The notes under the pieces are model-generated. The model did not search any database. It saw only the letters and a list, made by a program, of their open reading frames with translations, and was not told the origin of the DNA. Below are positions 3,301-5,085 of a stretch of DNA of 64,000 bases, one piece after another. Position numbers and translations under genes: made by a program. How positions within the stretch are numbered: the stretch's first letter is position 1; the number at the start of each line of letters is the position of its first letter. The stretch is from assembly GCA_024958655.1 (NCBI GenBank), contig JANWUR010000013.1:35043-99042 (forward strand), written 5' to 3'. Source of the stretch: Cyanobium sp. FGCU6. Lineage in GTDB: Bacteria > Cyanobacteriota > Cyanobacteriia > PCC-6307 > Cyanobiaceae.

Positions 3301-5085
3301 AGCGAACCAGATGTCGCTCAAGGCGCGCTGGTTCCCCGTGCTGGTGGTGTAGGTCCCGAGCTGGCGGTGGGCATTGCCCGCACCATCGAGCTCGCTGCTG
3401 ATGGTGTAAGCGGTGGAAAGGGAATGAACGCCAAGGGAACCGAGCTCGGAGAGCTCTCCCACATCCACCGCGCCATCGGCGTCACCATCCCGCCAGAGTC
3501 TCAGCTGACTCCAGACGGGATCGGCGGCATCGATGCGGCCGTTGCCATCGCGATCGTGGGCACACAGGGCCTCAAAACCGTTGTCGGCAAGGCTGCCGTT
3601 CGGCAGGAGGGTGTGGTTGCCGAAGAGTTCGGCGCCGGAGCTGATGCGACCGTCACCGTCGAGATCACGAACCAGGAGAGCGTCGTCCGACGCCACCCAG
3701 CCGGTGCGCTCGGCATAGCGGTTGCCATCGTGGTCGAAGAACACGCCCGACTGTTCCCAGCTGATCGTCTCCACGCCATCGCCATCAAGATCGAGAACCA
3801 GCGGGCACCCCTGTTGCGGCGGCGTGGGTCTGTCGAACCACTCCTGGAGCTGCCGCAGAAAGTCCGGGGTCCAGTCACCGGTGCTGTTCTGGAGCCAGGA
3901 GGAGAGCTGGGCACCGGCCTGATCACCTGCGATCCCGGCCCCGAGCACCAGGGCCGCCGCCAGGGCCAGGCCCCAGGGACCTGCGAGGAGGAGGGGAGCC
4001 AGCGCTAGCGAAGCCAGACGTCCGGCAGCGAGCGCCGAGGCATTGCGAATCGCCCAGTCCGTGAGCAGCCGCTGGGCGGAATCGGTGTCCCCGGCCTGAT
4101 GGAGGGTGACTGCCTGATGCGCCAGCAGGGCCAGATCGATCACATCCGCGGCAGCACCGAGATGATCGAGAACCGCGAGAACCCTTGCCAGATCAGTGGC
4201 CCGCCCATTGACGGCATGGCTGTTGGCCTCGGCGAGAAGTTCCTGGCGCACCTGGCGCAACGTCTCCACTCCCTGGGCATGGTCGGCAAGACGGGTGCTT
4301 GGCACAAAATCCGCCAGAGGGCGCATGGCCGTGGTGGCACTCGGAGCGACAACGGTGAGGTGAGGCTGATCGGCGAGAAACTGCCGTGCATCCACGGCCA
4401 TCTGCTCGGCCAGCAGGGGCATGCCCTGGTCGTCCACTGCAATGCGCAGTTCTGCCGCCCTCACCTCGGACTGGGCGCGGATCGCTGCAAAGGCCTGATC
4501 CTCATCGAGAGAGCGCAGGACTTGGATCGGGATTCCATCGATATGGGTGATCGATGGATTAGCCAGCAGAGCAGGTAATTCGGTCTGGCGGAACACGCGA
4601 TCTGCCGCCGCCCCGCCAGTGAGGGTGACCACTGCACCGCGGGCCTCACTCACGAAGCGTCGCGACACCTCATCCCAGATGCCGTTGGGCTGGCGGATGC
4701 CATCGACGCGAGTGCCGAAGAGAAGATCCGCAACGCGGCTGTCATTCTGGACATCACTTACTCCATAAAAAGCCCTGAGCCAATCAATAAGAGCTTGATT
4801 AGCGCTCGGACTGCCCTCACTGATATCAAGGAAACGCCCAGCCTCAGTAAAGTCTATAGCATTCACATCATTCGCACTCATTGCGATCTGCCGAGCCAAA
4901 GACGAGCCACTCATAAATCTTCTGTCTCCACCCAACCCCTCAAAAGGATAACCACCGCTATACAGAACAGTAAGCGAGCCTTCGGCAGAGACACTAATCC
5001 GCTCCACTAAAACCCGAAACTCATCCTCGGATTGAATCCCGGACAGAAGGTCATTAGCCTCCTGCATTGAAAGACCCGTTGCCAT
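307..5085 (-). CDS. RTX/hemolysin-type Ca-binding T1SS substrate: N-terminal ADP-ribosyl-cyclase-like domain, hydrophobic hairpin, FrpC-like self-processing module, RTX repeats, serralysin-type C-terminus
   Basis: Many GGxGxDxL nonapeptides; PLVLDLDGDG...TGWV...DDALLVRDLDGDGRI...GAELFG module; C-terminal DRIDLSLIDA...GNQAF; GAGG RBS before the ATG. Confidence 0.9.
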   Translation of the reverse strand: MATGLSMQEANDLLSGIQSEDEFRVLVERISVSAEGSLTVLYSGGYPFEGLGGDRRFMSGSSLARQIAMSANDVNAIDFTEAGRFLDISEGSPSANQALIDWLRAFYGVSDVQNDSRVADLLFGTRVDGIRQPNGIWDEVSRRFVSEARGAVVTLTGGAAADRVFRQTELPALLANPSITHIDGIPIQVLRSLDEDQAFAAIRAQSEVRAAELRIAVDDQGMPLLAEQMAVDARQFLADQPHLTVVAPSATTAMRPLADFVPSTRLADHAQGVETLRQVRQELLAEANSHAVNGRATDLARVLAVLDHLGAAADVIDLALLAHQAVTLHQAGDTDSAQRLLTDWAIRNASALAAGRLASLALAPLLLAGPWGLALAAALVLGAGIAGDQAGAQLSSWLQNSTGDWTPDFLRQLQEWFDRPTPPQQGCPLVLDLDGDGVETISWEQSGVFFDHDGNRYAERTGWVASDDALLVRDLDGDGRISSGAELFGNHTLLPNGSLADNGFEALCAHDRDGNGRIDAADPVWSQLRLWRDGDADGAVDVGELSELGSLGVHSLSTAYTISSELDGAGNAHRQLGTYTTSTGNQRALSDIWFAVNSALSRALDIQRVDASVAGLPDLPGMGVVPSLHQAMARDGSGLLRDLVQHWVTADATVRSSLLDSLLFHWAGVQSVDSGSYGAAIAEGRKVAALEAFFADRYRDGAVPDAFGASQLEQAFEALRRRVAARLTLQVDLAPMLAAFQPEPARGGEGQVLNVDAGMAMLRDHLANGNPEAQSRALTAAVLELGREPMAPLIDGARLAALSAPENLFLPLLAIGTQEWIRQIDEPGGLIGGNADDLLVGNQYGSCIFGNGGDDILVGGPGWDNLYGGLGSNTFVFGLGDGIDWIETEYLPGQEADNTLAFRAGIRPQDLVFQQDASGYLAISIAGSTDQVYVESFRQHYAPAPFHVTQYLGWITFADGTRWSADELRLRLNQGTAGADFLDGDYRAETIRGGAGDDRIRTWGGDDLLDGGSGSDALDGGSGSDTYLIRRGEGKDVITDLSDGQPHRDSVQFGPGIGPANVRFYRSLSEWDLDLHIQIDGDPGALKITSFFWGGLPGDFWRWSVEEFRFEDGTVWTDEEIRARMLAGTAESQSLFGYFGDDTILGLDGHDRIHGMEGNDRLEGGNGDDRLFGGMGNDWLDGGSGSNVYVFEGEVGRDVIASRSQPLQGDPGQIQIHHSVLAPDVVVLRRVGNDLEIVESSSSAANAVLIQDYFRDNTSANPWNPVQSIGWWGHSSWDLASIDSRVTNLYRGGRADDPLTGTADHDFLEGFAGNDTLHGGLGNDRLDGGEGIDTASWAGMTTSVTVDLALAGPQETGAGQDTLVSIENLIGGAGADRLLGHGGDNRIDGGAGDDTIDGGAGSDVLLGGLGVDTVSFASAPSPATVDLANTRAQRTVGTWSDTITGFENLVGSAWNDTLTGSSGANQIHGGAGADLIRGGEGADRLTGGPGADRFSYGSPAEAGLGAAGRDLITDLESIDRIDLSLIDAHSSLKGNQAFVFIGSAAFSAPAQLRYFLLGSEGLLEGNVDNNLAADFQIALAGAPALTAGWLVL

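Follow-up and report, generated by a model that had tools for sequence, protein, structure and literature searches.

A candidate type-I-secreted RTX toxin with an N-terminal ADP-ribosyl-cyclase-like domain and a putative upstream immunity gene in a picocyanobacterium

What does a large RTX protein of a picocyanobacterium carry at its N-terminus, and what purpose may the small gene in front of it serve? These questions are raised by one end of a 64,000-nucleotide stretch of Cyanobium sp. FGCU6 DNA (contig JANWUR010000013.1, positions 35,043 to 99,042), referred to in the following as the window. An open reading frame (ORF) on the minus strand of this window (307-5085) codes for 1592 residues, arranged as an ADP-ribosyl-cyclase (ARC, CD38-like) domain, a linker, a hydrophobic hairpin, a self-processing module (SPM), a middle region, RTX repeats and a C-terminal signal. 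Residues 1-186 are encoded by positions 4528-5085 (minus strand), where a first-pass annotation had placed a CD38-like NADase domain. We consider it probable that this ORF specifies a type-I-secreted RTX toxin that depletes NAD(P)+ by way of an N-terminal ARC-fold glycohydrolase, and that the gene at 5239-5649 supplies the cognate immunity protein. The exact 1592-residue product has no public record. Its start codon is supported because the N-termini of the family align at residues 1-3 and because gene callers put the start 154 nt after the partner gene. At an identity of at least 90%, the GyrA sequence encoded in the window falls into a cluster with metagenome-assembled genomes (MAGs) of Cyanobium, Synechococcaceae, Vulcanococcus and Prochlorococcaceae, in agreement with the first-pass assignment of this DNA to a picocyanobacterium.

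The ARC domain comprises residues 1-190 (4516-5085, minus strand), with Y42-S43-G44, T80-E81, W137, S141 and E169 as key residues. All four strings on which the CD38 likeness had been based are present in the translation as quoted: VLYSG (40-44), IDFTEAGRFLD (77-87), IWDEVSRRFVSEARGAV (136-152) and RVFRQTELP (163-171, containing E169). A single-sequence phmmer search of residues 1-200 against the entire Protein Data Bank (PDB) returned just two matches, 9OUF (E 0.12) and 9RO8 (E 0.18). The first is Tac1, a type-VII-secreted ADP-ribosyl cyclase toxin from Streptococcus parasanguinis (PMC12356396); the second is ARCtox of Pantoea ananatis (PMC12605009). An exhaustive HMMER search of 1.84 billion representatives with residues 1-330 uncovered a family, named ARC-N here: 455 relatives scored E <= 1e-3, of which 129 also passed E <= 1e-10. 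When the window domain and 41 relatives were combined into a profile (A1, 42 members), 9OUF and 9RO8 were matched at E 1.1e-9; E was 0.019 for the Aplysia cyclase and approximately 0.3-0.5 for many CD38 chains. The Pfam model PF02267 gave weak matches in 26 of these 42 members (best E 0.0017); the window domain itself stayed below the gathering threshold and was not matched at E <= 1. A single-sequence search with residues 1-240 of a word-indexed set of 5.8 billion proteins returned no relative. Contigs from genomes and metagenomes were also scanned with single proteins, again with no relative; loci were recovered with a two-sequence alignment (A6).

The AlphaFold2 (AF2) model of residues 1-215, computed with A1, is of high confidence (pLDDT 95.5, pTM 0.90). 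Its top 50 Foldseek matches in the PDB are all CD38, Aplysia cyclase, ARCtox or MARTX RDTND at probabilities of 0.95-1.0, and a model of residues 1-440 gives the same ARC-family result. The ARC fold that the first-pass annotation had anticipated is borne out by this retrieval of essentially ARC/CD38 structures only. The window domain exceeds the minimal bacterial ARC toxins in size and carries inserts. The register of the active site is fixed by published numbering, in which W137 corresponds to Tac1 W540 and ARCtox W323, and E169 corresponds to Tac1 E573, ARCtox E356 and Aplysia E179. E169 also aligns with the essential glutamate of CD38 (E226), and W137 with W189 of the W-x-x-x-S motif of CD38. 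Across about 150 representatives, S141 is kept in 149 of 150, W137 in 143 of 149 and E169, proposed earlier as the catalytic residue in a CD38-like order of motifs, in 145 of 147. Exchange of E573 for alanine costs Tac1 both activity and toxicity (PMC12356396), and ARCtox loses toxicity upon mutation of any one of W273, E299, W323 or E356 to alanine (PMC12605009). We conclude that residues 1-190 are a divergent ARC/CD38 domain and very probably a CD38-like NAD-destroying enzyme.

The proteins that carry this domain have a common layout. In 148 of 151 family sequences, the ARC domain begins no later than residue 45. At least three RTX motifs occur in 49 of the 70 relatives of 700 residues or more (Pfam was run on five of these). 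Other relatives (P0024, P0028, P0063, P0102 and members in loci L016, L018 and L019) have an XVIPCD C-terminus, and some XVIPCD relatives also bear a Tle1-like lipase or a peptidoglycan-binding domain. The ARC-N domain defines an unannotated family; its carriers are RTX proteins of type I secretion or XVIPCD proteins of antibacterial type IV secretion. Since both export routes read a C-terminal signal, the toxin domain is found at the N-terminus. Pfam shows no XVIPCD in the window protein, and no LXG, PAAR, Rhs, VgrG or CdiA trafficking domain in this protein or the relatives examined. A short contig labelled as a Rickettsiales MAG (L015:99-1901) encodes an ARC-N domain together with the linker and hairpin region (HMM E 3e-37), and because of this member the family extends past cyanobacteria and Xanthomonadales.

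Conservation does not end with the ARC domain, as the following 250 residues are conserved across RTX-type and XVIPCD-type relatives, and in most long members a hydrophobic segment, or a pair of them, is found some 110-180 residues downstream of it. In the window protein, the linker (residues 191-345; 4051-4515, minus strand) consists of short strands followed by two helices of about 30 residues each (263-292 and 296-330). Then comes the hydrophobic helical hairpin (residues 346-390; 3916-4050, minus strand) with a conserved G369-P370 turn, in which G369 is invariant and P370 nearly invariant among relatives. The Kyte-Doolittle hydrophobic segments at 349-386 agree with the hairpin that had been placed at residues ~345-390 in the first-pass annotation. 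In the AF2 model of residues 1-440, pLDDT exceeds 80 up to about residue 345 and the hydrophobic helices beyond are of low confidence; Foldseek found no known fold for the linker or the hairpin in this model.

The overall plan of the protein is that of FrpC, with an N-terminal passenger, an SPM and RTX repeats. Residues 428-604 (3274-3804, minus strand) match the FrpC-type Ca2+-dependent SPM (PDB 6SJW) with a phmmer E of 8.3e-39 over 177 residues. The alignment starts at residue 1 of the PDB chain, which makes P428 the equivalent of FrpC P415, the residue just after the scissile bond. The equivalents of the stabilizing FrpC residues W451 and W519 as well as the DxDxDG EF-hand-like loops are conserved in the window SPM, and the equivalent of FrpC D478 is asparagine. 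In FrpC, Ca2+-induced folding twists the Asp414-Pro415 bond, and the side chain of Asp414 attacks its own carbonyl, thereby freeing the N-terminal fragment as a reactive anhydride (PMC7078468). The window protein lacks this Asp-Pro pair: a Cys427-Pro428 junction (3802-3807, minus strand) stands at the position of the scissile bond, as it also does in the ortholog in locus L014 and in relative P0001. Among 27 relatives with a PLxLDLDGDG start, the residue before proline is serine in 13, aspartate in 11, cysteine in 2-3 and threonine in 1. No covariation that would split cleaving from non-cleaving SPMs was found between this residue and the D478 equivalent. Because the scissile aspartate is a cysteine, the Asp-anhydride chemistry is not to be assumed for the window SPM; where serine or cysteine precedes the proline, the module may be inactive or may rely on a different reaction.

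The SPM is followed by a middle region (residues 605-840; 2566-3273, minus strand) with no Pfam match and no recognized domain, and by RTX nonapeptide repeat blocks with HCBP_related domains (residues 841-1520; 526-2565, minus strand; PF00353 and PF06594). PF00353 (HemolysinCabind) matches 11 stretches of the ORF with an E of 1.1e-42, and this match confirms the earlier designation as an RTX protein; PF06594 is matched with an E of 1.5e-10. A motif scan located 17 GGxGxDxUx-type nonapeptides at positions 850-1505, i.e. toward the C-terminus. A Peptidase_M10_C-like match at residues 1364-1586 (E 4.6e-7) indicates a serralysin-like C-terminus, and the NCBIfam matches of the ORF are confined to the RTX and serralysin repeat regions. 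The last segment (residues 1521-1592; 310-525, minus strand) is presumed, by analogy with RTX proteins, to be an uncleaved type I secretion signal. Type I export of the window protein would be consistent with the RTX repeats and the serralysin-like C-terminus.

If this protein is a toxin, how would the producing cell survive it? The gene at 5239-5649 codes for 136 residues (MPFVNEVVSDAD...) and is located on the same strand (minus), 153 nt upstream of the toxin gene. The intergenic spacer between the two (5086-5238, minus strand) has 49% GC. A promoter and terminator scan produced no signal above shuffles. The exact 136-residue product is a called gene in public records, on contigs no longer than 1-2 kb. 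It contains neither a signal peptide nor a hydrophobic N-terminus; the missing signal peptide fits, because the toxin would act in the cytoplasm. The corresponding family has 548 members at E <= 1e-3, all of about 140-150 residues and all unnamed or hypothetical, with the common motifs MxF[VI]NE, WTxDxxRxxY and LKEAL and with no match in Pfam (Imm74 included) or the PDB. By BLASTP, the window protein of this family is 30% identical (E 2e-11) to the product of a 153-codon gene of Xanthomonas prunicola that overlaps the start of an ARC-N gene by 4 bp; start-stop overlaps of 4 bp between partner and ARC-N genes occur among relatives.

HMM searches of fetched loci identified a member of the partner family directly before every ARC-N gene in the loci examined (the window, L001, L002-5, L006-8, L009-10, L014 and L020-25). 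In the reverse test, four partner proteins encoded on long contigs served as starting points; each of them has an ARC-N gene downstream, and two of these four loci contain two to three tandem partner copies. T1SS genes (type I secretion system), namely ABC transporter and membrane fusion protein (MFP) genes, adjoin family members in L001 and L009. In L001 (Xanthomonas), MFP and C39-ABC genes are near the pair. In L009-10 (L009:7522-8784), a T1SS ABC gene is followed by partner, ARC fragment, partner and then an RTX protein of more than 4000 residues. Loci L002-5 (L002:5443-13049) contain four tandem cassettes of a partner and a ~180-residue ARC fragment in addition to the full-length pair, with a VirD4-like gene adjoining. 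Immunity genes of the X-Tfi type likewise have an upstream position (PMC6759196). On these grounds we regard 5239-5649 as a putative gene for a cytoplasmic immunity protein against the toxin. As an observation in its own right, the tandem arrays of a 150-residue partner and a truncated ARC-N upstream of full-length effectors are the mirror image of the orphan cassettes located downstream of C-terminal toxins. Other repeated gene pairs, of 180 and 99 residues, stand ahead of a Tle1-XVIPCD effector in L019:7001-13870.

The base composition of the locus is mosaic. A low-GC tract (approximately 4700-5480, 45-52% GC) runs from within the partner gene, of which it includes the 3' two-thirds, across the spacer and through the first ~128 toxin codons; the rest of the toxin ORF has 64-68% GC and the neighboring genes about 70%. 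An ortholog on a contig of a Cyanobacteriota MAG (L014:4404-9182), from which the DNA past the left edge of the window was also assessed, is 78% identical over all 1592 residues, with 89% identity in the flanking DNA. Its partner gene, spacer and ARC domain (residues 1-190) are comparably low in GC. The tract looks like an imported or recombined cassette of immunity gene and toxin head on a resident scaffold. Amino acid identity to this ortholog is 74% in the ARC domain, 70% in the C-terminal part of the partner, 86% in the linker and lowest, at 68%, in residues 605-840; the most conserved stretch, at 93%, is residues 346-427, which contain the hairpin. This pattern would fit a constrained delivery element beside fast-evolving toxin-immunity surfaces. 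Within ~6 kb past the toxin gene, ortholog contigs contain an SNase gene (L014 only), an AmiA-like gene and Znu genes. Other freshwater contigs (L021:2978-9039, L022, L023) hold a 51%-diverged ARC-RTX allele in the same chromosomal slot, with its own partner gene and a partner remnant fused in one ORF and with AmiA-like and Znu ABC genes adjoining. This looks like a hypervariable slot for toxin and immunity genes in picocyanobacteria. At least 11 studies contributed metagenomes (freshwater, lake and biofilm) in which the gene pair was found.

Known systems share parts of this arrangement. Tox-ARC domains were predicted in 2012 (Zhang et al.) for toxins of the type II, V, VI and VII secretion systems (T2SS, T5SS, T6SS, T7SS) with Imm74 or Imm63, and ARC toxins were demonstrated in 2025 for T7SS, T6SS and contact-dependent inhibition (CDI) (PMC12356396, PMC12605009). 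Tac1 (T7SS) and ARCtox (PANA_2924 of P. ananatis, a T6SS PAAR protein) have the same fold and W...S...E core as the window domain, and a small cognate protein is encoded alongside. However, domains of this type measure ~130-150 residues, are located at the C-terminus of proteins delivered by T5SS, T6SS or T7SS, and have their immunity gene (Imm74, Imm63 or ARCimm) downstream. The window domain, in contrast, comprises ~190 residues with inserts, has tyrosine in place of the first tryptophan, and is N-terminal on an RTX/T1SS carrier (relatives: X-T4SS, the Xanthomonadales type IV secretion system), with the linker and hairpin behind it. Its partner belongs to an unannotated family unrelated to Imm74 or Imm63 and is encoded upstream. 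Neither of the two 2025 papers mentions RTX, T1SS or XVIPCD (PMC12356396, PMC12605009).

The MARTX domain RDTND (DUF1) of Vibrio vulnificus (PDB 8KA0-8KA2) is also a CD38-like NAD(P)+ hydrolase on a type-I-secreted RTX toxin. RDTND, however, is an internal effector that is freed by a cysteine protease domain (CPD), needs RID and host calmodulin and targets animal cells, whereas the window protein has no detectable CPD, RID or calmodulin-binding element and comes with an immunity-like gene. The NADase fold is the sole feature that it shares with MARTX toxins, and Pfam and NCBIfam recognize no MARTX-specific domain in its ORF. FrpC and ApxIVA, the "clip-and-link" proteins, show the same order of a passenger of ~415-430 residues, an SPM starting with PL[AV]LDLDGDG, RTX repeats and a C-terminal signal; FrpD, the partner that binds the N-terminus of FrpC, is a lipoprotein of the FrpD fold. 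The X-Tfe/X-Tfi pairs of the X-T4SS in Xanthomonadales combine, as here, an N-terminal toxin and a C-terminal secretion signal with an upstream immunity gene in the operon. In 2019 it was proposed for a different family that X-T4SS effectors and RTX proteins have N-terminal domains in common, and the idea of antibacterial RTX effectors exported by T1SS was raised as well (PMC6759196). We rejected Smlt3024/Smlt3025 as members of the same family, since that immunity protein is a 333-residue FrpD-like lipoprotein and the Smlt3024 toxin acts in the periplasm (PMC6759196). In the open-access literature, we found no paper that describes an X-Tfe or an FrpC-like protein as an ARC NADase.

In Bordetella CyaA, the working model for self-translocation of an N-terminal enzyme, a nucleotide-acting enzyme is followed by hydrophobic helices, RTX repeats and a T1SS signal at the C-terminus. 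Neither its enzyme nor its hydrophobic parts are related in sequence to those of the window protein. CyaA depends on acylation and calmodulin, lacks an immunity protein and acts against animal cells.

How might the window protein act as a toxin? The N-terminal enzyme would be made first and could fold in the cytoplasm of the producer, where the immunity protein would block it; the same protein would also shield sister cells. To judge from the architecture, a T1SS encoded elsewhere in the genome would recognize the C-terminus and export the protein. Extracellular Ca2+ would then fold the RTX blocks and the SPM, for which the homology in fold to FrpC is clear and the function is taken to be similar. 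The linker and the hydrophobic hairpin may enter the target membrane and bring the enzyme to the cytoplasm. There, as the homology to Tac1 and ARCtox suggests, NAD+ and NADP+ would be hydrolyzed in an E169-dependent reaction and growth would stop.

Several observations weigh against this proposal. The Foldseek TM-scores are just 0.34-0.48 with large root-mean-square deviations, and no Pfam or NCBIfam model matched the N-terminal 240-400 residues alone. The first active-site tryptophan (CD38 W125, ARCtox W273, motif FFWSG) is Tyr42 in the LYSG of the window domain; at this position the family has Y in 115, F in 17 and W in 3 members, which means that an aromatic residue is retained. E81 is the candidate for the second acidic residue (CD38 E146, Tac1 E516), whose role is to promote hydrolysis of cyclic ADP-ribose. 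The family varies at this position: of 140 members, 67 have E, 24 have D, 17 have Q, 14 have P and 6 have A. The equivalence of E81 to CD38 E146 is positional only: T80-E81 is located, as expected, at a strand-to-helix junction in the AF2 model, and the HMM alignment of this segment to CD38 is not significant. The window SPM lacks the aspartate needed by the known cleavage chemistry, and the argument for the partner as an immunity protein is purely one of synteny. Genes for an ABC transporter, MFP or TolC of a T1SS were found neither in the 64-kb window nor within ~6 kb past the gene in ortholog loci. None of the RNA-seq runs contains the toxin gene, and a secreted protein of ~160 kDa would have the outer membrane of its target to cross.

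Could the target be a eukaryote? In this case the NADase would pass through the plasma membrane of protist grazers with the help of the RTX and hydrophobic parts, in the manner of CyaA or MARTX RDTND, and the upstream protein would protect the producer only prior to export. The order of parts does mirror that of CyaA, RDTND as a CD38-like NADase on an RTX toxin is among the Foldseek matches, and picocyanobacteria are heavily grazed; ARCtox is also toxic in yeast (PMC12605009). Yet the same domain-plus-hairpin module occurs on XVIPCD effectors of bacteria-killing T4SSs, arrays of orphan cassettes, like multiple immunity copies in tandem, have the pattern of an arms race between bacteria, and Pfam identified no host-factor-binding domain or CPD in the toxin ORF. 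We judge a toxin against grazers to be unlikely. Because the module is shared with antibacterial T4SS effectors and accompanied by orphan cassettes and immunity arrays, other bacteria are the more likely target of the proposed toxin.

The protein may also not be a toxin at all. It could be an RTX surface protein with an extracellular NAD-processing enzyme akin to CD38 or Nac1, for scavenging of nicotinamide or ADP-ribose or for signaling by cyclic ADP-ribose (cADPR). CD38 is an ectoenzyme, RTX proteins of cyanobacteria often belong to the cell surface or the S-layer, and no T1SS or other conflict genes stand beside the pair within the window; furthermore, Nac1 is a secreted bacterial ARC enzyme that has no immunity protein and makes cADPR (PMC12356396). 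A harmless enzyme, however, would not need a linked cytoplasmic partner, orphan cassettes and co-diversification, the glutamate at the candidate second acidic position favors full hydrolysis over cyclase output, and the relatives are antibacterial T4SS effectors. Alternatively, an ARC-like fold could serve a different chemistry, acting on another nucleotide or a nucleic acid or merely binding as an idle module, with the upstream gene encoding a chaperone or export adaptor. In line with this, 9OUF is labelled "Ribonuclease" by its depositors, the wider superfamily includes enzymes for other N-glycosidic bonds, and the window domain has a tyrosine instead of the first tryptophan and a variable second acidic residue. 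The profile matches, however, are specific to ARC enzymes with demonstrated NAD(P)+ hydrolysis, the near-invariance of E169, W137 and S141 argues for retained catalysis, and tandem partner copies without a toxin fit immunity rather than a chaperone. Given the immunity-type linkage and the near-invariant E169, we find a harmless ectoenzyme quite improbable and a different chemistry hardly more than a marginal prospect.

Elsewhere in the window, a phage-type integrase gene (58774-60027, plus strand) is located where the GC content drops from ~0.70 to 0.46-0.61 toward the right end (58000-64000), a region that may be the edge of an integrated element. Two ORFs without a Pfam match, of 784 residues (23193-25547, minus strand) and 415 residues (44205-45452, plus strand), coincide with local dips in GC content (0.57 and 0.55) and may have been acquired as well.

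Returning to the reading of ORF 307-5085 as an NAD(P)+-depleting RTX toxin, what would it add to the known ARC toxins? A known fold and a probable chemistry are found here in a new position, on new carriers, with a new putative immunity family and in a new taxon. ARC/CD38-fold NADase toxins were shown experimentally only in 2025, and only as C-terminal T6SS, T7SS or CDI cargo; the catalytic core described here is in another format, at the N-terminus of FrpC-like RTX proteins and antibacterial T4SS effectors. The conserved hydrophobic module beside the ARC domain may be an entry device. A probable function would be assigned to several hundred "hypothetical" N-terminal domains (455) and to ~550 hypothetical small proteins, and the long-puzzling clip-and-link module of FrpC would become tied to toxin delivery.

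More tentatively, and with considerable doubt on our part, these proteins could form a "mirror-image" class of polymorphic toxins, in which a variable N-terminal toxin precedes a C-terminal signal (RTX/T1SS or XVIPCD/T4SS). The immunity gene and orphan cassettes would pile up upstream, because export is driven by the C-terminal signal and the toxin is N-terminal. An exchangeable unit of immunity gene and ARC NADase would then be mounted on a delivery unit of linker, hairpin and SPM, the Ca2+-folded SPM would free or arm the NADase-hairpin part for self-entry into the target cytoplasm, and SPMs with Ser-Pro or Cys-Pro would be cleaved by a chemistry other than the anhydride route. The locus is a candidate for toxin-mediated competition in freshwater picocyanobacteria, and if such a class exists, these organisms would own a secreted NAD-depleting weapon against neighboring bacteria.

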